Part shown: positions 38,334-53,634 of the stretch, piece after piece | How positions within the stretch are numbered: position 1 is the first letter of the stretch | Layout: each line of letters opens with the position of its first letter | IMG/VR virus record: IMGVR_UViG_3300029959_000012 | Coordinates: 2,421-66,420 of that record | From: a virus | Taxonomy: Duplodnaviria > Caudoviricetes | DNA: 64,000 nucleotides | Reading direction: 5' to 3' (one strand) | Notes under the pieces: model-generated | What the model was told of the DNA's origin: nothing | The model's input: the letters and a program-made list of their open reading frames with translations, nothing else | The model's database searches: none | Position numbers and translations under genes: made by a program

Positions 38334-39290
38334 TTACTGGTTGCCCATGGTAAGTGGATCACAAACAGTGTTGAGAACCATGATACGATCGTTGTTGTTC
38401 TTCTGATTCTTGGAGTTTGGATAAACCATGGTACCGAAGTAACGAGTGTTAATCAAGTAATCAGTTCCTTCTCGTGCATCACGACCCTGTTCTACTTCAG
38501 GAACTTCAGAACCACTGTAGGTGTAATGATCTGCAGTTTCATCGGATTTAATGACACAGACAGTCTTTCCAACATAATTGAGTTTCTGTGAACCTACCCA
38601 TGTGATACCAAAGTTATCTCCTGCCCACTGGAAATCAGTAGTGTTGACCTGTGATCTGGTTACAAGGACATTTGCCTGTGACGCTTCGAAGAGTTTTGCT
38701 GGCTGACGAATCTGGGAATATAGTTTTGCTGGGTAATACACAACCATGTTGTTGATATCGTCTTCAGAGATCTTTGCAATATCCTTAGTAAATGCTGCAT
38801 CAATGAGATTGCCAAGGTCACCTGCTGGATCTGCTGCTGAAGTGTTCCACTTTGCTCCTGCAGTTGCAGATACACCGTAACTGGTGAGGAATGTTCGTAG
38901 GATTTCTAGATCTCGATTCCATGCAAAAGTCTTGGATGCGCTCTTAATGGAATTGGTGAGTTGTACTGCACGATCTAGTCGAATCTTGGACTCATCGGTA
39001 ATTTCTACACCACAACGATACTTGGTAAGGTGAATAACTTTCTCATATTGAGTTGGACGGCTGTAAGCACCGGTGGTACCTTCCCCAATCTCGAATAGTG
39101 GAGCAAGTTCATCATCCTGACAGAACATGTGAACATCAATATTTTCAGTAGTTCGCATATTAACTGCGTCGATAAATTCCATCTTACGAAATGTATTGAT
39201 ATCAACTAAACGAGATATGGCGGTCGATCCAGCCTTCAGTGCATTTTGAATTTCACTGTTCTGAATACCTAATGAATAAGTGTCTACCAT
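38334..39290 (-). CDS. major capsid protein (HK97 fold)
   Basis: 318 aa; EIGEG, KYRCGVEITDE and long helix FAWNRDLEIL; follows the protease and decoration genes. Confidence 0.85.
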   Translation of the reverse strand: MVDTYSLGIQNSEIQNALKAGSTAISRLVDINTFRKMEFIDAVNMRTTENIDVHMFCQDDELAPLFEIGEGTTGAYSRPTQYEKVIHLTKYRCGVEITDESKIRLDRAVQLTNSIKSASKTFAWNRDLEILRTFLTSYGVSATAGAKWNTSAADPAGDLGNLIDAAFTKDIAKISEDDINNMVVYYPAKLYSQIRQPAKLFEASQANVLVTRSQVNTTDFQWAGDNFGITWVGSQKLNYVGKTVCVIKSDETADHYTYSGSEVPEVEQGRDAREGTDYLINTRYFGTMVYPNSKNQKNNNDRIMVLNTVCDPLTMGNQ

Positions 39291-39992: not shown

Positions 39993-41174
39993 CTAGTTTC
40001 CAATGTATTTTCCAGATTCATCGAATAATGGAGCGAAAATTCCAAATTGTTCCTTGGTGAGATCTTCCATCATCCTGCGATGAACTTCGTTATTGGGACT
40101 ATTGATTCCTACTGCCGCAAGAGCACTAGAAATATCAACATAATTTTTATCTGCGGTAGATCCACCTACACTTGATACATCGGTGATTGGTGCTGACATA
40201 GGAGTCTTAATCGCGAAAGCCTCTTTATATTTGTCAAGCATCATGAGTTGAGTTTCCATGGACATGGAGTCATCAACCAGTTTCTTGGGTTCTGCAATAC
40301 CAAGTTTAGTGAGTTCAGCAAATCTTTCATCGCGCTGACGTTTTAGAAGTTTAGAATGCTCGGCTTCAAGTTTTGCTAACTTTTCAGCAAGTTCAGGTGG
40401 AACACTACTAGTGGGAGATTCAGTAATTGGTGCTTTAACTTCCGTGGTGACTTCAGGGGTGACTTCCGGGGTAACACCCTTAACGGCTTCTGCTACAGCA
40501 CCTTTAATGAGGTTCTGAAGTTCTTCTGGAGTCATACTAATCGTAGGCTGTACAGTTGGAGTAATTGGTTCTGGGGTTGTAACTGGTGTCATAATTGGAG
40601 TTTCCTGTTTAGTTTTATCGATGTTAGTTTGGTTAATTTTGTTAATTGATTCATTGAGATTGTCGATTTTCTTGGTAATTTCACTGAAGGAATCTGCCCA
40701 AGAATCAGTGGGGGTTGGTGGTGTAGTTCCTTCGGGGGCATCGAAATGGTGAATGCTGGTTGTGTAGGGTGTTTTGATCATACCTGGGTTATTGCTTAAA
40801 GCCCATCCATCATATGTAGCACCAACAACACGACCATTCACGCTATCAAGTTGAATTTCCGGAGAAATGTATTTGAATCCATTTTTCTGCTGTTCCTTGA
40901 AAGTTTTAGGATCGGTTATGAGTGACTTCTGTATGATCTTTTTGCCATCACTACTCAATATATATTTTTTAACTTCAGCAATAGGTTTACCATCATGTAT
41001 CGCTTTTCCTGGTGTAGTATCCTTGATGTTGTGATATATTTCTGACAACACATCTTCGTCTAAAGTGACTTTCTCACCTTTAGAATCGGTGAAAGTTCCA
41101 ACTTCTAGAATTGGACTTTCAATGGTATATGTGTCAATATCCTTTATTTGGGACATTATGCGAAGGATATTCAA
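39993..41174 (-). CDS. prohead protease/scaffold protein (Mu gpI-like)
   Basis: ILEVGTFTDSKG...HDG...YISPE...ALSNNPGM protease domain, followed by a Pro/Thr linker and coiled-coil scaffold. Confidence 0.8.
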   Translation of the reverse strand: MNILRIMSQIKDIDTYTIESPILEVGTFTDSKGEKVTLDEDVLSEIYHNIKDTTPGKAIHDGKPIAEVKKYILSSDGKKIIQKSLITDPKTFKEQQKNGFKYISPEIQLDSVNGRVVGATYDGWALSNNPGMIKTPYTTSIHHFDAPEGTTPPTPTDSWADSFSEITKKIDNLNESINKINQTNIDKTKQETPIMTPVTTPEPITPTVQPTISMTPEELQNLIKGAVAEAVKGVTPEVTPEVTTEVKAPITESPTSSVPPELAEKLAKLEAEHSKLLKRQRDERFAELTKLGIAEPKKLVDDSMSMETQLMMLDKYKEAFAIKTPMSAPITDVSSVGGSTADKNYVDISSALAAVGINSPNNEVHRRMMEDLTKEQFGIFAPLFDESGKYIGN

Positions 41175-41732: not shown

Positions 41733-43391
41733 TTATCCTTGATTTATTCTTTTTAATGGTTCGCGGGCTGCTGCATCACCAACATCGGTTGGTTGGGTGT
41801 TGGCGCTATGACGAGTTGTTGGATATTTTGGTGATTTAGTAGTAGAGTTGGTTGATATACCATCAGTTTCACCTTTGTCACTACCAAGGCTTTCGCGGGC
41901 CATTGCCTGATCCATTGATTTAGATTGGAGTGGAGTTGGTTTGACAATGTCTTTTCGCTGTTCTTCGGTAAGTGGTTTGAGGCCAATTTCTGCACGTATT
42001 TCTGCGCTAGTGCATTCACCGAGTTCTTTCTTCATGATGGCGTTTTTGTGATTGTCGATAGTGTTGCTGGACATGTCGTAACTAATTGTGCATTCGAGCC
42101 ATTCGACTGGATATTGCGAGTTTATTAGGGATAGACGTTCTTTGATGACTTTGAGTATGACACGTGATAGTTTGGTGGTCATTTGTTCGATCTTGAGTGA
42201 AGCGTAACTATAGATGGCGAGTTCACCCGCGTAATTTGAGGTGGATTGGCCCTTAATGATTGAAACGGGCATGTTTATGGCGCTGAAGATGCTCTCGGTA
42301 GTTTGATCGAGGAGTTCGTTGGCCTGGACGAAGTTGGCATTTTTGGGTTCGACATATTGCAGGGTTGTGGTGTCAAGGTGGACGAACGCGGCATCGGGTG
42401 CGGTGTTTTCGAGGGCTGATTTCTGCATTTCCACAGTGTTGGTTGCGTCTGACACCGCTTTTTGCATACGAACTTCGGGTGTGCCTACATATTGACCGGT
42501 TGAGAAGGATTCTCCTTGGATGCTGCAGTCTAGTTTGGGCATTGCTTTATATCGCCACATTGCATCGTTGGCCATTAATACACGACGATACCATACGGGG
42601 ATTACGGCGCGACGAAGTGGCGAAACTGCGTAGATTCCATAGGTGTTGCGACCCTTGCAATCTTCCACGTATATGGGTGTGTCTCGTAATCGAATGATGA
42701 CGAATTCATCTTTAGAGAGGATTTTTTGGCTTGGAAGTTGCTCATCGAGCACGAGGTAGTTGGCTTCGGTGATTAGGTTGTCATAACCAATTTGGTTCAT
42801 CGCGGGGTTGTGTATGCGATCCGGGTGATCGATGATTGTGACGCGATCATTGGGTAGGACTGTTATGGAGAGGTTTGATCGTATCCATAGGAATAAGTTG
42901 CCGTGGATTTGGAGGATGCTGGCCCACGCTTCGAGCATATCGCTGATGTAAAGTTCAGTACCCAATTTGTTAGCAACATCGACCATTTCAGATGCGAGGG
43001 CTTTCTTGGCCTTGTTGAATGTTATTGTGGTGTCATCATCAACATACAGGCTATTTGGCATGTTGTCCATTTCGCTGTCATTGACGAGGCTGAAGCACTT
43101 GAAGGCTTTGCGAACCATCAGGCTGCTGGCATCGATGCTAGTGGCGATTTCGGGTTCCATTACGTAGAGGTGTTCTAGAAGTTCATCACGGTTGTATCGC
43201 GTCATATCGCTGATGCTTTCAACGAAATTCACGAAGTTGCTTTGGCTGTATTGGGCGGCTAGACTACCTGCTATTGCGGGGTTGATGAAGTCAGCACTGG
43301 ATTGTTTGGAACTTTTGCTGCCATAAGGTGCGCTAAAATGGTGTTTTCGCGACGTTATGGAACGAGGATTGTAATTGGACTTTTTTGACAT
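41733..43391 (-). CDS. portal protein
   Basis: 552 aa between terminase and protease genes; YAVSPLRRA and IFSAINMPVSIIKG portal-type motifs. Confidence 0.8.
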   Translation of the reverse strand: MSKKSNYNPRSITSRKHHFSAPYGSKSSKQSSADFINPAIAGSLAAQYSQSNFVNFVESISDMTRYNRDELLEHLYVMEPEIATSIDASSLMVRKAFKCFSLVNDSEMDNMPNSLYVDDDTTITFNKAKKALASEMVDVANKLGTELYISDMLEAWASILQIHGNLFLWIRSNLSITVLPNDRVTIIDHPDRIHNPAMNQIGYDNLITEANYLVLDEQLPSQKILSKDEFVIIRLRDTPIYVEDCKGRNTYGIYAVSPLRRAVIPVWYRRVLMANDAMWRYKAMPKLDCSIQGESFSTGQYVGTPEVRMQKAVSDATNTVEMQKSALENTAPDAAFVHLDTTTLQYVEPKNANFVQANELLDQTTESIFSAINMPVSIIKGQSTSNYAGELAIYSYASLKIEQMTTKLSRVILKVIKERLSLINSQYPVEWLECTISYDMSSNTIDNHKNAIMKKELGECTSAEIRAEIGLKPLTEEQRKDIVKPTPLQSKSMDQAMARESLGSDKGETDGISTNSTTKSPKYPTTRHSANTQPTDVGDAAAREPLKRINQG

Positions 43392-43680: not shown

Positions 43681-45168
43681 TCAGAACCTTCGCATCATGA
43701 TGACTGGTTTGTAAGTTGCTCCGGTTTCATGACTTGTCAAATACCAGATACAATTTGCTACACAGTCGCTAACGTCCTTGCTTCCATTCCAAGGATGATC
43801 CGGCTTTATTTTTCCAGTCGCGGTCTGTTTCTTGACTAATTGTCTTGCTTCTCGAAGTAGCAATTCGTCGTGAACAACATCGAGTTGATATGGGCCTATT
43901 CCATCGTTAAGTTCAAGCCATTGGGAATATGCATCGATACCTGCTACATGTTTAACAAGTTCTATACCGTGATTTTTTACTTCTTCAAGTGTTTCTAAAT
44001 ACATATCAGTATCAAATATAAATGCTTGAACATGTAGTTTATTGATCCATTCTAAAATGTAATTTCTTATATCAGATGGTTTAATAAACGCTTCGTTTGA
44101 TGCTATTTTTTCAAATCGCTTAACTCCATCAATTATTATGTGTTCTCCTACTCTATAACCAACCGCAATACCAAAACTATCATTACGATATGCAGGATCT
44201 ATTGCCATTACGTGGTGGATGTGGTTATAATCATCTGGTAATTCATCTCGTTCAAATACATTGATCATTGGAGTGAGTCTAACTCCTCCTGGAAACATCA
44301 GTCCACCACTTACTTCTGGCTGATTAGCAAAGTCACGGTAGAAGATATCCATCTTATATTTGTATTCTTCACGAAGAACTTCTTCTGATACTTCTGGTGA
44401 AGGGTTGACTTCCCATGTCTTAAATGAAACAGCAAGGGTTAATTCTCCTTTTTCTGGAGTCATTTCTTCAAGTCCATCATAGTATAATTTATTAATTAGA
44501 CCATCTGTATATTGAACCGATGAAATTGCTACTACTTTGCCGTTTCGACCAAGAGTTTTTGTGGAATTGACAAATTTTGAATATATCATGTCACTTCCCA
44601 TCTTGGAATCTGTCTTTTGAAAAAGGTCAATCTCGTCAAAAAATGCCGCTTTTGCCGTATAACCGGCCGCGGTGGCTGCGTTGGCAGCACGGACCTGCAT
44701 AAAGACGTTTTTTTCTTCACATTCTATTCGATCTTCTTTATATTTTAAAGTCCAATACTTATTGATAAATTCAGATTCTTTTAAGAACCCAGATGCTAAT
44801 CTATATATACCATCTCTAGCCTGATCTGCTCCAGCAGCCACACAACTCACTACGATTGGCTGTATACTTACTAATCCGTAATGTTCTGCTGGGTTTTCAA
44901 GTGATATTAACTCAAAAAACTCGAAACATGCCATGGATGAAGCAAGTAAGGTCTTCCCAGCGCGCTGACCAATTCGAAGCACTAACTTCTTGTATTCTTG
45001 ATTTTGATCACTATACTTGTGTCGATAGAAATCTCTAACAATTTTTTCTTGTGCCGGGTATAGAGTTTTAAATCCTAAAACTTCTTTTATAAAATAAACA
45101 GGATCGTTTCTGCATTTATTGACTTCCTTTGAAAATTCAATACTTTCAGCAACAGAGTCAAATTTCAT
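43681..45168 (-). CDS. terL: terminase large subunit
   Basis: Walker A GQRAGKT, Walker B AFFDEID, nuclease AIDPAYRND and KDVSDCVA. Confidence 0.93.
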   Translation of the reverse strand: MKFDSVAESIEFSKEVNKCRNDPVYFIKEVLGFKTLYPAQEKIVRDFYRHKYSDQNQEYKKLVLRIGQRAGKTLLASSMACFEFFELISLENPAEHYGLVSIQPIVVSCVAAGADQARDGIYRLASGFLKESEFINKYWTLKYKEDRIECEEKNVFMQVRAANAATAAGYTAKAAFFDEIDLFQKTDSKMGSDMIYSKFVNSTKTLGRNGKVVAISSVQYTDGLINKLYYDGLEEMTPEKGELTLAVSFKTWEVNPSPEVSEEVLREEYKYKMDIFYRDFANQPEVSGGLMFPGGVRLTPMINVFERDELPDDYNHIHHVMAIDPAYRNDSFGIAVGYRVGEHIIIDGVKRFEKIASNEAFIKPSDIRNYILEWINKLHVQAFIFDTDMYLETLEEVKNHGIELVKHVAGIDAYSQWLELNDGIGPYQLDVVHDELLLREARQLVKKQTATGKIKPDHPWNGSKDVSDCVANCIWYLTSHETGATYKPVIMMRRF

Positions 45169-45208
45169 TTAGGAAAAAAGAATGTTTACTTTATATAAAC
45201 ATTGAGAA

Positions 45209-45751
45209 TTATTTGAGTAGGTGCATCACGCTATCCAATTTCTTCATGACACGTGGTTGACATTTATCGCATAGACATCCACCACTCAAAATATCAGTGA
45301 TGATATTGAGGTTTCCTTCGACTTGCAGGATTTTCGTTTCGGAATCACCAGCGTTCTTGAGTCTGCCTTGGAATTCACCGAGTTTTGTAAGTGAATTGTT
45401 CATTTCCTTGGTTAATTTGGTGATTTGATCGATGAGTATGCTATCTACGTTGCCATCTGCATCACGTTGATCGATGACTTCCTGTAGGAGATCTTTGAGA
45501 GTGCCATACATGAAGCCAAATTCATTGAGATAGAAATCAGGCGATGATATGACTGTTTTGTCGATACCATTGACATTCTTGGTCATTATCTGCATTTCGT
45601 GGTGATTGATGTGTTCTATGACATCTTCCTTGTCCATGTCGAAATGCCGGGCTAAATCTTCAAGTGTTACGTTGGGTTTGGTGTGAAAATCCCTGGTAAA
45701 TTTAAAACCGATGGGACCACTTCTACAAATCGGGCACAGTTCTTTATCCAT
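45209..45751 (-). CDS. terminase small subunit (putative)
   Basis: Directly upstream of terL; CPIC, HTH-like segment and coiled coil. Confidence 0.65.
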   Translation of the reverse strand: MDKELCPICRSGPIGFKFTRDFHTKPNVTLEDLARHFDMDKEDVIEHINHHEMQIMTKNVNGIDKTVISSPDFYLNEFGFMYGTLKDLLQEVIDQRDADGNVDSILIDQITKLTKEMNNSLTKLGEFQGRLKNAGDSETKILQVEGNLNIITDILSGGCLCDKCQPRVMKKLDSVMHLLK

Positions 45752-45806
45752 ATTAGGGTTTACCTTTTTAGTTTTGTTGGTGTTGATAACGATGGAAAGT
45801 CCACCA

Positions 45807-46349
45807 TTAATGATAGTGCATCAATTTTGCATTGTTTACTTTATTTAAATCAAGTGACTGGGTCATTACGATAGGTAAAGGTTTTACATCATCACCTTTA
45901 CTTACATTCACCTGTAATATAACGGGTGTTCCATCATCGATTGTATCACCATACTGTTCATCGATCATCTCTTCCACGCGATCTTTGTAGACTTCAACAA
46001 GGTTACCGTATCCGAAATGCTCTAGAACATTGAACATCAGATCTTGAACCTCCTCTAGATCCATGTCATCTTTCTGGGTATCTGGAATCATAAAGGTGGT
46101 AACATCAACAACATCGAATGGATCGTTATTTTTGTGGTAAGTGAGCATATTACGGAAGGAGATGATGCCCTGTGCTTTAGTTGGGGCAGTGAACAAGTAA
46201 ATTTCCATTTCACCTTGGGTAATGACAAACGTGTAAGTGGATTCTTCGGTTTCGTAGCATTTGTAAGTTAAGACACCTTCCAGTGATACGAAGTTGGTGG
46301 ATTTCTTTTGAAAAGTATCAGTATATTCGAAGGTTTGAATAAAAACCAT
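45807..46349 (-). CDS. hypothetical acidic protein
   Basis: 180-aa ORF with upstream TATA box. Confidence 0.65.
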   Translation of the reverse strand: MVFIQTFEYTDTFQKKSTNFVSLEGVLTYKCYETEESTYTFVITQGEMEIYLFTAPTKAQGIISFRNMLTYHKNNDPFDVVDVTTFMIPDTQKDDMDLEEVQDLMFNVLEHFGYGNLVEVYKDRVEEMIDEQYGDTIDDGTPVILQVNVSKGDDVKPLPIVMTQSLDLNKVNNAKLMHYH

Positions 46350-46418
46350 GCGAGGATGTTGGTGTTTAATCTATATAATATTTTGGGTAATAGTTAAATA
46401 AAAGAGTTATATTTGGTG

Positions 46419-47108
46419 TTAGCATACACCAGTTATTTTATGGATAAATGGATCATTGTAAGTGGTAAATTCTCCATTTTCAAATTTTATGTGTTTAAAT
46501 GATGGTTCTATGCGTATGTGTATTGAAATTGTTTCTATATCATCTTCTAAATTACAATTTGAAATATATAATTTTAGTGGTTTGTCTCTTATGATAAAAC
46601 TACATTCTGCACGATTCAATGGTATACAACCAACCCAAGTTATTCCTGGTTCATCACTCTTGATAAGTCTCACTGAAGTTTTATTTATCAGTCGTGGCGA
46701 TCTTATATATGCATATAGTTTTGTTGGATAATATACATACCATCTATTGAAATTATAAGATATATCGATCCCTTTCTTTACATCTTCTGCTATTTTACAA
46801 TCTTCATCATTCCATTTTAATTGTGCTTCGGATGTAGATGATGTAAATTTTCCCAGACTAAATAATATTGAATTATCAATTTCATTTGCAAAGGAATTTG
46901 CTATTAATTTAACAAGGTTTTCATAAAAATCTGATTCAGTTAGCCATGAAGCATTGTCAATTAATGCATCCTTATTAATCTTATAACAAAATTTTAGATC
47001 TTTTTCAAAATTATCTTCACAATTTGTATAAACTTCACATGCGTCTATAAAATTCAATGATTTTAATATGCGTTTAATAATGTCGTTACTATCTAGTAGA
47101 TATTCCAT
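46419..47108 (-). CDS. truncated major capsid protein paralog (229 aa)
   Basis: VYYPTKLYAYIRSP versus MCP VYYPAKLYSQIRQP; GITWVG in both; FANEIDNSIL versus FAWNRDLEIL. Confidence 0.8.
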   Translation of the reverse strand: MEYLLDSNDIIKRILKSLNFIDACEVYTNCEDNFEKDLKFCYKINKDALIDNASWLTESDFYENLVKLIANSFANEIDNSILFSLGKFTSSTSEAQLKWNDEDCKIAEDVKKGIDISYNFNRWYVYYPTKLYAYIRSPRLINKTSVRLIKSDEPGITWVGCIPLNRAECSFIIRDKPLKLYISNCNLEDDIETISIHIRIEPSFKHIKFENGEFTTYNDPFIHKITGVC

Positions 47109-47197
47109 GATATATAATATGTTTCATTAATATTTATTGTTTTGTATTAACATTAAGTATCATACATTATTAGTATGGTAAAAGTTCATATGTAGTT

Positions 47198-47464
47198 ATG
47201 ATATTAGAGTGTTTGATTGCGATTGGAGTTATATTAACTGTTGGTTATATGATATTGCAAATGTGGATGCAGAGTAAAGTTGTGCCACAAATCGAGTTAG
47301 ATACAAGTGATCTGGTGTTTAATAGAGAGGGGCTGTGCCCAGAATGTTACAGTGATGATGTAGAAGTTTGTTACGTGGATGAACTGTTTAAAAAGGGTAA
47401 GTATGGGATTTGTCAAAATCCAAATTGTGGACTGGCTTTTGATCTACCAGAAGATAATGTTTAA
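47198..47464 (+). CDS. membrane-anchored zinc-ribbon protein
   Basis: N-terminal TM helix; CPEC and CQNPNC. Confidence 0.7.
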   Translation: MILECLIAIGVILTVGYMILQMWMQSKVVPQIELDTSDLVFNREGLCPECYSDDVEVCYVDELFKKGKYGICQNPNCGLAFDLPEDNV

Positions 47465-47718
47465 TTACTTATCCCATTTAATTTATATACAGAGTGATTA
47501 GAGGTTATAACAACATCAACATTTACACTCACTCCGTTTTTATCATCACTACCTTCTACATTTTCAATGAATTTAAATGGTGACAATTTAACTGTTAGGG
47601 CTTTTCCATCTATTACAAGTGCGCTATTAGCGTTGTTGAGGTAGTTGAGTTTTTGACTCCCGATAAATGTCACTGTTGTTATCTTTCCATGAAGTTGTAA
47701 CATCGCGTTCACCTGCAA
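47461..47718 (-). CDS. capsid-derived fragment, C-terminal part
   Basis: TFIGSQKLNY versus MCP TWVGSQKLNY. Confidence 0.6.
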   Translation of the reverse strand: MQVNAMLQLHGKITTVTFIGSQKLNYLNNANSALVIDGKALTVKLSPFKFIENVEGSDDKNGVSVNVDVVITSNHSVYKLNGISN

Positions 47719-47923
47719 TTGCAGCGAGATTTCGTATAATTACATTATCAAGGTTGTGTGCGATAATTTTAGATGCAGAACTAATTACTTCATCTTCTGA
47801 TAGATTTTTATCTACTAGCGCGGTGTATTTAACGCCATTGTTTTCAGAATCAAATACTAAATCTATAACTTTTGCAAACTCCATGCGTTCGGAAATACTC
47901 TTTTGGAATTTTTCTTTATCCAT
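47627..47923 (-). CDS. capsid-derived fragment, N-terminal part
   Basis: RMEFAKVI versus MCP KMEFIDAV; SASKIIAHNLDNVIIRNL versus SASKTFAWNRDLEILRTF. Confidence 0.65.
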   Translation of the reverse strand: MDKEKFQKSISERMEFAKVIDLVFDSENNGVKYTALVDKNLSEDEVISSASKIIAHNLDNVIIRNLAAIAGERDVTTSWKDNNSDIYRESKTQLPQQR

Positions 47924-48134
47924 AACTATAAAATGTATTTAATAATATATAACAGTTACTATATCAATAAATTTATATATTAGTAATATTATACAATAAT
48001 ATGTCATTTTGAATTGGCGTTCGACTGACTTATAATGGGATTTTAGTTATTACCTACTGCGGGGAGATCCTACCCGTCGAAAAGTTGGATCCCCACCTGC
48101 AACTTTTATAAATCTGCACGACATATAATTATGT

Positions 48135-48386
48135 ATGCGTGAATGTTTTAAATGTGGTCAACTTTTAGATGATAGTGAATTTTATGTGAGAAGTGATGGT
48201 GGAATTCGCCACGTTTGTAAAGAATGTATATTGAAACGATGTAGTTATGTTAGACATTGTAAAGTCACCATTGATACAGGTGTTGCTCAATATTATTGGT
48301 CCGAAATAAAGGACTTGTATGATTTAGTTGGGCAAAAGAATACAAGTATCATAAAATTAATGAAGTTAACAGTGAATACAATTTGA
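48135..48386 (+). CDS. zinc-finger protein
   Basis: CFKCGQLLDDSEFY...CKEC, the zinc knuckle often found N-terminal to HNH/endonuclease VII domains. Confidence 0.7.
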   Translation: MRECFKCGQLLDDSEFYVRSDGGIRHVCKECILKRCSYVRHCKVTIDTGVAQYYWSEIKDLYDLVGQKNTSIIKLMKLTVNTI

Positions 48387-48528
48387 AAGTTCATCATAGA
48401 CTTATTGAAATTGGTGTTATTAAAAGTTTGAATAAGCATAAACAACTTTCATATAAAGTTTTCAGACTTTCTACTAGCGCAATTGATTATATCGAAAACA
48501 AGGAAAGTTGTAGTAAGAATTTGAAGAT

Positions 48529-49911
48529 TTAAATATCTAGATCTTCAAATCTAGTAACATCACTAATATTTTTATCACTGCGTAATTGCTTATAAATAGG
48601 AAATCTCGCAGATTTACCCGTTTTGTAACTTGGGCTGTCGCTAACTTCGAAAAATTCGATTTCTACGCAATGCTTTGGATTTACTATTACACATTCAGAT
48701 GATGTTTCAATGATGTCATTGGATAATAATTTGGTGAACATTTCTAGATCGTAGTCGTTAAGGCCGCTCCCACATTTACAAAATTCAGTGAGGTTGCCTT
48801 CAAACCAAATGCTACAGATGAGTGCGCCTATCTTTCCCTCGCGTTTGCCAGTGCCAAAGGTGTAGCCAGTAATGGCGAGATCGATTGTATCGACATTGCG
48901 TTTTACTTTGAGCCATTTACGCTCGTGTGGATAATATGGATCGTTCAAACCTTTGGTGATTATGCCTTCGTAGCCATTGGTCATTGCATATTCAAAGGCC
49001 ACTTCTGGATCTGTGAACTTCTTGGACAACATTTCTTCTGGGAATAATACTTCTAATTCTTCACGACGCATATAATATGGACAATCAATTACCGATACCT
49101 CATTTATATATAGAATATCGAATATAACTGGATGAAGATTATTTGAAAGATTCATTGCGTCCTGACCACGCATTGAATCGGTAATAAGTTCCATGTCTAG
49201 GATGATACTTGTTATCGTTGCATTGGCATGTTTACACAATTCATGGAGTTGTTCACCGATGTAAGGTATTTTATCGCTGATGTCTTCACAGCGTCTACTA
49301 TATAATCGCCATTCGCCATTGTTTAGATGAAATAACGCTCTAAAACCATCCATTTTCAATTCGGACATCGTATCACCCTCTATTTGTAATTTGGCCTTGG
49401 CAAGCATTGGTCTGATGGTCTGGAATGGTTTGATGCCATGGTAATTGTTGCGTAGGATTAGTTCGATGTCATTACAGGTGAAGTAATGTGTGCGGATTTC
49501 TGGGTTGTTGGTGAGTTGACCTATTACATCTAGGACAAGGTTGTCGCTCATACCAATTGATAGGTTATTAAGCATGATTTTGACTAGGTATGTTTTCATT
49601 AATGGTGTGCATCGACTCATCAACCTACTGATTACCTCGGTATTGTGGATCGGTGATTTATTCAACGCCGTTATACTATTCCATAATTCCTGTAGGGTTA
49701 TGGGTGTGAAGTCCAGTGTGGCTTGGTTATTGCGGAATTTCTTGAAAAGTTGAGTGCCAACACCGGTTATTTTTTCGTTGAGAAGTATACGACAAACGAC
49801 GATTCGATCTTCGGCGTTAAGTGTGCGTAGGTATTCTAGTAGGGTTGATTGCTTGGTGGCCTTTTTATTACTGTTGGCTATGGTATCAAGTGTGGCAACG
49901 AATTGTTTCAT
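48529..49911 (-). CDS. lig: ATP-dependent DNA ligase
   Basis: ELKMDG (KxDG), ILDMELI, IFDILY, YEGIITK, WLKVK and a C-terminal OB fold (RFPIYKQLRSDK). Confidence 0.95.
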   Translation of the reverse strand: MKQFVATLDTIANSNKKATKQSTLLEYLRTLNAEDRIVVCRILLNEKITGVGTQLFKKFRNNQATLDFTPITLQELWNSITALNKSPIHNTEVISRLMSRCTPLMKTYLVKIMLNNLSIGMSDNLVLDVIGQLTNNPEIRTHYFTCNDIELILRNNYHGIKPFQTIRPMLAKAKLQIEGDTMSELKMDGFRALFHLNNGEWRLYSRRCEDISDKIPYIGEQLHELCKHANATITSIILDMELITDSMRGQDAMNLSNNLHPVIFDILYINEVSVIDCPYYMRREELEVLFPEEMLSKKFTDPEVAFEYAMTNGYEGIITKGLNDPYYPHERKWLKVKRNVDTIDLAITGYTFGTGKREGKIGALICSIWFEGNLTEFCKCGSGLNDYDLEMFTKLLSNDIIETSSECVIVNPKHCVEIEFFEVSDSPSYKTGKSARFPIYKQLRSDKNISDVTRFEDLDI

Positions 49912-49963
49912 AACTATATATTTAGTTTTATATAGATATGAAGTTGTCGTTTAGGTAAAAAAG

Positions 49964-50563
49964 TTATGATGTTGGTTTTAGTGTTGCTTCTAGGTAGAGA
50001 GTTATTACAAATCTACCTGCGTTGTCTGATTGTATCATTGGTATTGCTTCACCAGTGAATATATGTGGATCTGGTTTGAATACTAGTGTGTTGTTGATGG
50101 TTTCGATTAGATTTTTAACAACGTTCTCTGGATTTATTTCAAAGATGTCTTCAGCGAATCTAAATTTCTGCATTGGGTAATTGTCTAGGCTCTTCGTTTC
50201 AGTTAAATTATAATTTGAAATTAAGAATTTTATGATATATGTTTCCATATTTTTAGTTAGTTCTGGATCTGGTTTTGGAATAAATGGATATTTTGATGAC
50301 ATCTGATTGTAAATGTAAGATGGAATATAATCATTGTATATATACTTTCCTTTTATCCAATGTAAAAGAACTTCATCTATATCTTTACGAATTTTACAAG
50401 TATCAGTTAGTCTGAAATTGAATACGGAAATGTCTTCAAATTCATTAGTTGGCGTCGTAATTGAAACAAGATCTTCTCCATCTCGTGGATCACGACCAGT
50501 TCTTACCAATTTTAGATTGTGTTTCTTAAAAAAGTCTACTACTTCGGGATGTTCAAATCGCAT
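49964..50563 (-). CDS. hypothetical protein
   Basis: 199-aa ORF with upstream TATA box. Confidence 0.6.
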   Translation of the reverse strand: MRFEHPEVVDFFKKHNLKLVRTGRDPRDGEDLVSITTPTNEFEDISVFNFRLTDTCKIRKDIDEVLLHWIKGKYIYNDYIPSYIYNQMSSKYPFIPKPDPELTKNMETYIIKFLISNYNLTETKSLDNYPMQKFRFAEDIFEINPENVVKNLIETINNTLVFKPDPHIFTGEAIPMIQSDNAGRFVITLYLEATLKPTS

Positions 50564-52995: not shown

Positions 52996-53634
52996 ATGGT
53001 ATTTAAACTTTGGCCGAAGCAGCAAGAGATTGTAGATAAGGTTTTGGCATATAAATATAGTAGTGTTGTTCGTCTTGGGTTTCGCAGTGGTAAAACTACA
53101 ATGGCTATGTGGTTAACAAATGAATATTTAAAGATGGATAAAAATGTAGTATATGTTACTTCTACGTTAGATATGGCGAGAACTTTATTTAATGTGTATG
53201 TGGATTTGTTTGACGTTGCAAGTGGATGTTGTTTTGTTAAGGATTTAAAGGTAAATTATTATGCTACTAAATGTATGCAGGAAGTTTGTGACGCGAGTGT
53301 TAAGTTTAGATCTGGTGAAAGTTTTTTGAACATGGATGAGGGGTATGATGTTGTTATTGTTGATGAACCAGATCTTTTGCATTTTAAGTCTGTCGCTAGG
53401 AAGAGTTTATTTTGTAGTGAGATTATAAAATGTAATTATGGTGGGGATGTTAAAGTTGTGTTGATAGGAACACCGGCGGTGAGTGATGATACTAGTTTGA
53501 TGTATTCGCTTCCTGGTAATGTTATTAAGATGTCTACATGTGAAGTTAATCCATTGTTCACTAGGGAGATGTTGGAAGAAGAGTTTAAGTTTGCGATTGA
53601 TAGAATAAAAAGAGATTTTTTAATAGAAGATTAG
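52996..53634 (+). CDS. stand-alone terminase ATPase-domain paralog (no nuclease domain)
   Basis: LWPKQQEIV, RLGFRSGKT, VIVDEPD, and STCEVNPLFTREMLEEEFKFAIDRIKRDF versus TerL KTWEVNPSPEVSEEVLREEYKYKMDIFYRDF. Confidence 0.85.
   Translation: MVFKLWPKQQEIVDKVLAYKYSSVVRLGFRSGKTTMAMWLTNEYLKMDKNVVYVTSTLDMARTLFNVYVDLFDVASGCCFVKDLKVNYYATKCMQEVCDASVKFRSGESFLNMDEGYDVVIVDEPDLLHFKSVARKSLFCSEIIKCNYGGDVKVVLIGTPAVSDDTSLMYSLPGNVIKMSTCEVNPLFTREMLEEEFKFAIDRIKRDFLIED

Follow-up and report, generated by a model that had tools for sequence, protein, structure and literature searches.

[quoted passage not shown] The gene is intact and the protein, which we call a mini-MCP, has the HK97 fold, with a truncated N-arm, an E-loop reduced to a stub and trimmed loops in the A- and P-domains. 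It belongs to a new protein family that is rare, optional and formerly unnamed. The predicted role of ORF229 is that of a functional, optional accessory protein that binds the MCP and modulates or interferes with capsid assembly, a reading to which we assign a probability of roughly one in three (0.35).

The window (the whole stretch of DNA analysed here, 64,000 nucleotides) makes up most of a 66-kb IMG/VR virus record whose source is groundwater metagenomes. DNA of the virus was present in two groundwater DNA runs only, and there was no RNA run among the listed holders. The head and packaging block lies on the minus strand and comprises the genes for TerL (43681-45168), the portal (41733-43391), a scaffold/protease-like protein (39993-41174), a 196-aa head protein and a protein of 318 aa (38334-39290). 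The 318-aa protein gave a weak match to a PHROG major head protein (phrog_1650), and its relatives, which are 43-54% identical to it, bear the Pfam domain PF25209 (Phage_capsid_4). Because of these relatives, and of the location of the gene between the scaffold/protease and neck genes, we assigned the 318-aa protein as the MCP and parent-type paralog. Histone-fold proteins and an ATP-dependent DNA ligase are encoded by the window and by its relatives. One relative, L017 (NZ_DAONKG010000008.1), is a 25-kb contig with a GC content of 38% that was binned with a Methanospirillum sp. MAG. Its collinearity with the window starts at a 141-aa gene and continues over the ligase gene and the packaging, head and tail genes, with 25-48% protein identity, and its binning is either a possible host clue or that of a misplaced viral contig. 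In view of the histone-fold proteins, the ligase and the presence of L017 in a Methanospirillum MAG, we conclude that the window represents an uncultured lineage of archaeal tailed viruses, possibly with methanogen hosts. No relatives of this lineage were found among GenBank phages, and searching the PDB by sequence gave no solved relatives. In another relative, L001, the TerL protein (L001:3542-6328, 928 aa) is interrupted by an intein that includes a LAGLIDADG endonuclease domain (Pfam Intein_splicing and LAGLIDADG_3) and divides the homology to the TerL of the window into two blocks.

A truncated HK97-fold paralog of the major capsid protein

A sequence-only reading of this DNA had proposed that ORF229 and the MCP share a series of motifs in the same order. 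All five motifs were recovered in both proteins, and their order is identical: FIDA (residue 20 in ORF229 and 39 in the MCP), the spine-helix motif (FANEIDNSIL at 73 and FAWNRDLEIL at 122), KWN (98 and 147), VYYP (125 and 184) and GITWVG (155 and 228). BLASTP aligned the two proteins over 126 residues with 29% identity (E = 2e-10). When the mini-MCP family was compared with nine MCPs by profile-profile alignment (hhalign), a probability of 99.5% and an E-value of 1.5e-22 were obtained over 112 columns. The similarity of ORF229 to the MCP is well beyond chance. The homology begins at the EF motif, close to where the E-loop region starts, and reaches as far as the C-terminal strand. Conservation is best from the spine helix through the A-domain core, a stretch that includes the W, YYPxKLYxxIR and ITWVGxxLN motifs.

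The same reading had pointed to a shorter segment between FIDA and the spine helix and to a truncated N-terminus, and both were found: the segment measures 53 residues in ORF229 against 83 in the MCP, and the N-terminus is 19 residues shorter. The open frame upstream of the ORF229 ATG could provide five extra codons at most, and the DNA beyond encodes an opposite-strand gene. Therefore, the truncation is real and is no artefact of start-codon choice. In a joint alignment, ORF229 is shorter than the MCP by 89 residues in all. The missing parts are approximately the first 19 residues of the MCP, about 30 residues between EF(I)DA and the spine helix, and three further deletions that remove two A-domain loop segments and part of the C-terminal P-domain region. 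ORF229 matched no family in Pfam or PHROGs, including the anti-defence families in those two databases. A weak match to Tsp45I in this search (E = 0.047) was dismissed as due to chance.

The structure of ORF229 was predicted with AlphaFold2 using a 12-row alignment of mini-MCPs and MCPs. The model (pLDDT 78, pTM 0.78) contains an N-terminal helix (residues 7-17), a beta-hairpin (24-30 and 38-43) and a 30-residue spine helix (58-87), followed by the strands of the A- and P-domains. This is the canonical HK97 layout, with spine helix, P-domain sheet and A-domain in order. A Foldseek search with the model returned HK97-fold proteins exclusively, with a probability of 1.0. Encapsulin and phage MCP scores lay within about 1 Z unit of each other, and we attribute the lead of the encapsulins, in effect a tie, to their similar size. 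Instead of a long E-loop hairpin reaching over the neighbouring subunit, the model has a 20-residue hairpin (24-43), and instead of an extended N-arm, just the helix before the EF motif. The two elements had been described as apparently lacking. Both are indeed truncated, but the E-loop persists as a stub hairpin and helix 7-17 is kept. BLASTP, hhalign, the model and Foldseek all bear out the assignment of ORF229 as a capsid paralog of the HK97 fold whose N-arm and E-loop are truncated, and structure prediction, which had been put forward as the test of the paralogy, left that claim standing. The model of the MCP itself (pLDDT 52) was too poor for a three-dimensional comparison of the E-loops or for interface modelling. 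A prediction of the complex of MCP and ORF229, run with a separate alignment for each protein, scored 0.01, which speaks neither for nor against binding. The ESM Atlas model of ORF229 had a pLDDT of 0.31 and its structural neighbours were meaningless.

The mini-MCP family and its broken member

An exhaustive phmmer search of 1.84 billion representatives detected three relatives of ORF229, namely P0008 (211 aa, E = 2e-13), P0009 (161 aa) and P0010 (191 aa), and two more, P0011 (200 aa) and P0012 (175 aa), came from a profile search. ORF229 thus has five intact relatives, of 161-211 aa, out of 1.84 and 5.8 billion proteins. A word-indexed search with ORF229 alone produced only the match to itself. 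No further mini-MCPs were detected in IMG/VR, searched with the family alignment and three single members, among GenBank phages, or in the PDB searched by sequence; the JGI metagenomes likewise contained no further mini-MCPs, yielding MCPs plus L007 only. P0008 to P0012 share their deletions relative to the MCPs. Invariant among the mini-MCPs are the W, YYPxKL, G and LN residues and a common C-terminal motif, and ORF229 keeps every invariant residue. The signature of the family (ORF229, P0008-P0012 and a broken copy described below; 161-229 aa) consists of the EF motif, a short hairpin, the spine helix, PW(N/D)xxN, YYPxKL, I(T/N)W(V/I)G, LN and a C-terminal motif resembling I(H/Y)x(I/L)(T/N)(G/N)(I/V)(S/C). 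ORF229 carries this signature and matches the family HMM with an E-value of 8e-78.

The family is highly divergent. ORF229 is at most 34% identical to the other intact members, and the same mostly holds among the members themselves. In a maximum-likelihood tree of seven mini-MCPs and nine MCPs, the branch that separates the two groups has a support of 100/99. The end branches of five of the seven mini-MCPs measure 1.2-2.5 substitutions per site, those of the near-identical pair P0009/P0011 being short, against 0.1-0.6 for the MCPs. Most family members lie on short contigs, and the faster rate of the mini-MCPs is read from the comparison of the window with the relative L008 and from the branch lengths of the tree. 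P0009 and P0011, the sole pair close enough to measure, gave a dN of 0.10 and a dS of 0.61, that is a dN/dS of 0.17, which indicates purifying selection in this pair. Inactivating mutations in homologs had been named beforehand as what would speak against the proposal; the survey of the five homologs, all intact, and the dN/dS of the one testable pair did not reveal them. Neither Pfam, PHROG, the source names nor a literature search provided a description of this family or of its like in archaeal viruses.

An ORF related to the P0009 type was observed on another contig. P0013 (L018:591-1157) combines a KilA-N domain ORF with the final 43 codons of a mini-MCP of the P0009 type, the two being joined in frame, and the DNA of L018 is 98% identical to that of L005 (183-668, P0009-type) over the last 213 nt only. 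A strain almost identical to the P0009 virus may thus have exchanged the first three quarters of its mini-MCP gene for the KilA-N ORF, or the fusion may be an assembly chimera on short contigs.

The earlier survey of the window had reported a single capsid paralog here, and in doing so had overlooked a second, broken member of the family about 350 bp upstream of ORF229, as well as the patchy occurrence of the family and the unusual base composition of ORF229. This copy A (47461-47923 overall, minus strand) is split between two reading frames. Its front part (ORF98, 47627..47923, minus strand) encodes the N-terminal half as far as the conserved Trp motif SWKDNNSDI and matches HMM positions 3-89 (E = 5e-8). 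The back part, in the different ORF85 frame (47461..47718, minus strand), encodes the C-terminal third, from VTFIGSQKLNY to YKLNGISN, which is the C-terminal motif of the family, and matches HMM positions 135-196 (E = 1.5e-7). A tblastn search with the MCP also detected copy A (47530-47715, E = 0.027). The frame changes between the two parts, and some 45 profile positions, among them the invariant YYPxKL, are absent, as after an out-of-frame internal deletion. At the deletion junction (47663..47674, minus strand), the 12 bases AGTGACATTTAT are read as SDI(Y), which is family-like, in one frame and as VTFI in the other, which suggests a deletion between short repeats.

The sequence of copy A is identical in a separate Logan assembly, possibly from the same sample as the window, and the region is present without a single difference in a contig from a second groundwater sample and study (X2 record 13, 47044-48100). 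An assembly error behind the frameshift is unlikely, as the same sequence was found in the Logan assembly and in the second sample. A programmed frameshift is ruled out by the loss of the 45 or so profile positions. Copy A is closest to P0008 (34% identity), and its identity to ORF229 is just 22%, so the pair did not arise by a recent tandem duplication.

Locus, distribution and expression signals

ORF229 is located about 7 kb from the MCP gene, in a variable slot bounded upstream by the ATP-dependent DNA ligase gene (48529..49911, minus strand; Pfam DNA_ligase_A_M) and downstream by the conserved ORF180a (45807..46349, minus strand), after which come ORF180b, TerL and the portal gene. ORF180b encodes a zinc-ribbon protein which, from its position, we guess to be the small terminase. 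Two small zinc-ribbon genes on the opposite strand are interleaved with the mini-MCP copies. The first (47198..47464, plus strand), between the two copies, encodes an 88-aa Cys4 zinc-ribbon protein whose N-terminus is hydrophobic. L008 has a homolog of this protein beside its mini-MCP, and L001 has one with no mini-MCP nearby. The second (48135-48386, plus strand) encodes a small Cys4 zinc-ribbon protein with weak PHROG matches to Lar-like restriction alleviation and endonuclease families (E about 1e-3). The immediate neighbours of ORF229 are the 88-aa zinc-ribbon protein and ORF180a, and no cargo-type gene, targeting peptide or enzyme match adjoins it. Between the second zinc-ribbon gene and copy A, an ORF-free stretch (48040-48125, minus-strand reading) contains the inverted repeat GGGGATCC...GGATCTCCCC, flanked by GCAGGT...GCAGTAGG and matching neither tRNA nor Rfam models. 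The tRNA and Rfam scans of the whole 45-50 kb region revealed no elements.

The gene order of other family members places the mini-MCP in a corresponding position. The contig of P0008 carries, on one strand, the mini-MCP, a 172-aa gene, a 188-aa gene and the start of TerL, an order that mirrors ORF229-ORF180a-ORF180b-TerL. In L008, a histone gene is followed by the mini-MCP (P0012), by two small opposite-strand genes, one of which is the homolog of the 47198-47464 zinc-ribbon gene, and by the ORF180a homolog. From the order in L008, copy A therefore corresponds in position to P0012, and ORF229, located between the zinc-ribbon gene and ORF180a, is additional. Three other relatives, L001, L002 and L017, have MCPs 44-48% identical to that of the window and collinear head and packaging modules. 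No mini-MCP was found in them by tblastn and HMM searches of about 10 kb on either side of the MCP gene, and in L017 the ligase gene is directly followed by the ORF180a homolog. The mini-MCP thus appears to be optional, in a variable slot before the packaging genes. The conserved retention in related viruses that had been suggested as a check is patchy: intact homologs are kept in some viruses, and are missing from the stretches of L001, L002 and L017.

A contig of the second groundwater sample (X2) joins position 49960 to position 46393 with 13 other letters in between, at a depth of 13 against 4-6 for the full-length form. This joint, which is of low likeness, may hint at a related strain without either mini-MCP copy, the ligase or the two zinc-finger genes, where the gene at 49964-50563 and ORF180a are adjacent.

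The mini-MCP also differs from its surroundings in its rate of change and its composition. Between the window and L008, it is the least conserved of the shared genes, with 26% identity against 35-54% for the others. The GC content of ORF229 (0.274) and its GC3 (0.157) are the lowest among 16 neighbouring genes, the corresponding values for the MCP being 0.42 and 0.36.

We compared the sequences upstream of the gene starts between 36739 and 52705. A GGTG/GGTA ribosome-binding-like motif is present 6-12 nt before the ATG of the MCP, 196-aa protein, scaffold, portal and ORF180b genes. This motif is missing from ORF229, copy A, ORF199, the ligase gene, ORF180a and TerL, but these have AT-rich TATA-like boxes about 20-35 nt upstream. 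In the case of ORF229 (upstream region 47109..47197, minus strand), the TATA-like box lies about 19-33 nt before the ATG. This arrangement suggests that genes with the box and without GGTG are leaderless first genes of separate transcripts, and that ORF229 would have its own promoter and a leaderless or short-leader mRNA. CGCCGAYC, a candidate late-promoter motif, had no match on either strand of 44971-48824, a region that covers the upstream sequences of ORF229, copy A, ORF180a, ORF180b and TerL.

Possible roles and comparison with known systems

In solved HK97-fold shells, the subunits of a capsomer touch each other mainly through the helices of the A-domain, the HK97 E-loop rests over the spine helix of a neighbour, and the N-arms link neighbouring subunits and capsomers (PMC8346489; PMC8569155). 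ORF229 would be an old, fast-diverging offshoot of an HK97-type MCP that has kept the core (spine helix, P-domain sheet and A-domain) and lost the parts that lock a shell together, namely the start of the N-arm, the greater part of the E-loop and a number of surface loops. Since the A-domain region of the capsomer contacts is conserved and the N-arm and E-loop are cut, we infer that the protein could dock onto MCP-type subunits without being interlocked into the lattice. The conserved motifs may, on the other hand, just represent the core of the fold and not an interface. If docking occurs, the assembly affected could be that of the virus itself, or that of a co-infecting relative or parasite with a similar MCP, and ORF229 would be no regular building block. 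To our knowledge, no virus-encoded interference factor of this kind has been described. The roles that the sequence-only reading had put forward, a capsid-size modulator, an anti-satellite or superinfection interference factor and a decoy for capsid-sensing defence, stand as hypotheses.

The main rival to a role in interference is that ORF229 is a vertex (penton) subunit that occupies the fivefold positions, with the MCP in the hexamers, and possibly fixes the size or shape of the head. Whereas both characterised MCP paralogs, T4 gp24 and SaPIbov5 Ccm, do make pentons, both also retain the E-loop and the N-arm that are cut in ORF229. The gene also lies 7 kb from that of the MCP, within a variable slot; it seems to have a promoter of its own, and no neighbouring gene is more deviant in base composition. 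The syntenic L001, L002 and L017, whose MCPs are 44-48% identical to that of the window, have no mini-MCP within about 10 kb of the MCP gene, and the sister copy A has been left broken. We therefore regard a vertex role as rather unlikely. Should ORF229 nevertheless prove to be a vertex protein, it would be the first reported for archaeal tailed viruses.

A different proposal is that ORF229 acts on host immunity, as a soluble mimic of unassembled capsid protein that occupies or misleads a sensor of the HK97 fold (a STAND protein of the Avs7/8/10 type, or a motif sensor like CapRel or Lit). The fold-sensing Avs7/8/10 proteins wrap around the MCP A-domain, and archaea, too, are rich in STAND NTPases (bioRxiv 10.64898/2026.01.04.697583). 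The A-domain belongs to the core that the mini-MCP has kept, and the gene behaves as an accessory gene, with fast divergence, patchy presence and replacement. The same genome also carries a truncated TerL-like gene, TerL being another known target of Avs. However, Avs sensors are activated by binding of their target, so that a faithful mimic should trigger immunity instead of preventing it. Moreover, no capsid sensor is known for the likely hosts, and the searches of Pfam and PHROGs gave no match to an anti-defence family. On balance such a decoy seems improbable.

ORF229 could also be a duplicated or imported capsid gene without present function, on the same path as copy A. The broken state of that copy, the GC3 of 0.157 and very long branch of ORF229, the possible loss of most of the gene to a KilA-N ORF in a strain of the P0009 virus, and the lack of the gene in several relatives would all fit with decay. 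This is difficult to reconcile with the maintenance of a 229-codon open frame at 27% GC, where stop codons arise easily, with the retention of all family-invariant residues and a confident HK97 model, and with the existence of five other intact members at 34% identity or less and a dN/dS of 0.17 where it could be measured. Decay is thus very improbable as an explanation of ORF229. Least probable of all is a self-assembling mini-shell or facet, whether an encapsulin-like compartment or a mini-capsid, as the encapsulin scores tie with those of phage MCPs within about 1 Z unit for reasons of size, no cargo-type gene or targeting peptide is evident nearby, and the E-loop stub argues against a closed lattice.

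The sequence-only reading had further grouped ORF229 with a TerL paralog as a set of self-mimics. ORF212 (212 aa; 52996-53634, plus strand) resembles the ATPase part of TerL: it matches the PHROG TerL family (phrog_2, E = 1.9e-6) and, around Walker A, the TerL of the window itself (E = 3e-5), and its C-terminal 42 residues resemble the linker of the L001 TerL. L007 and L008 have no ORF212 between the homologs of its flanking genes. It is therefore plausible, as far as these comparisons go, that ORF212 is a second optional, truncated paralog of a core packaging protein. The set stands as an observation, of a weakly TerL-like protein that two relatives do without, and goes no further. A broader and doubtful extension is that archaeal tailed viruses would possess a class of "anti-capsid" proteins, stripped capsid copies of fast turnover that dock either on the MCPs of competitors, be these co-infecting relatives or parasites that steal capsids, or on the capsid sensors of the host, with the effect of poisoning or blinding their targets, the virus's own MCP having diverged far enough to escape. 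Together with the TerL-like gene, such proteins would point to a general and so far undescribed strategy of self-mimicry derived from core virion proteins.

If the preferred reading is correct and ORF229 binds the MCP, it would be a natural, genetically encoded modulator or inhibitor of capsid assembly. It would also offer a way into conflicts between viruses, or between virus and host, in methanogen-type archaea. The mini-MCP shows gain, loss and replacement, as is typical of conflict genes. As a minimal HK97 core of 161-229 aa, the family may also serve to separate the requirements of folding from those of assembly.

Compared with the MCP of its own virus, ORF229 shares the spine helix, the W, YYPxKLYxxIR and ITWVGxxLN motifs and the fold, with significant homology, but stands apart on a long branch supported at 100/99 and by its other location, promoter type, base composition and optional presence. 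Truncated HK97-fold proteins are also known from cells. The Family 4 "A-domain" encapsulins (DUF1884, PF08967) are mostly archaeal and have no evident role in shell building (PMC8346489). They are proteins of about 100 aa that consist of the A-domain only, encoded in operons with enzymes, whereas ORF229 retains the P-domain and the spine helix, has a viral context and matches no Pfam family. ORF229 has neither the cargo operon or targeting peptide of a Family 1 encapsulin nor the A-domain-only architecture of Family 4.

We know of only two kinds of capsid-protein paralogs with a known job, T4 gp24 and Ccm, both full-size penton builders. The vertex protein gp24 is a full-size HK97 protein that is encoded beside gp23 and conserved in T4-like phages, whereas ORF229 is stripped down, far from the MCP gene and patchy in its distribution. 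Ccm resembles ORF229 in being an HK97-fold MCP paralog outside the normal position of a capsid gene, and it has an effect on assembly and is unable to form capsids by itself (PMC8569155). It had been cited as the precedent for ORF229, and holds as an example of a capsid paralog that acts on assembly. The parallel is otherwise weaker, since Ccm is encoded by a satellite, keeps the N-arm, the E-loop and the delta domain, and builds pentons (PMC8569155). ORF229, in contrast, is encoded by a virus, between the ligase and packaging genes, has no delta domain, and has its N-arm and E-loop cut. It does not have the full N-arm and E-loop of these penton paralogs, and is neither conserved together with the MCP, like gp24, nor carried by a satellite, like Ccm. 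The mini-MCP is therefore a different kind of paralog, conserved but optional, in which the core for capsomer contacts was kept and the interlocking arms were dropped.
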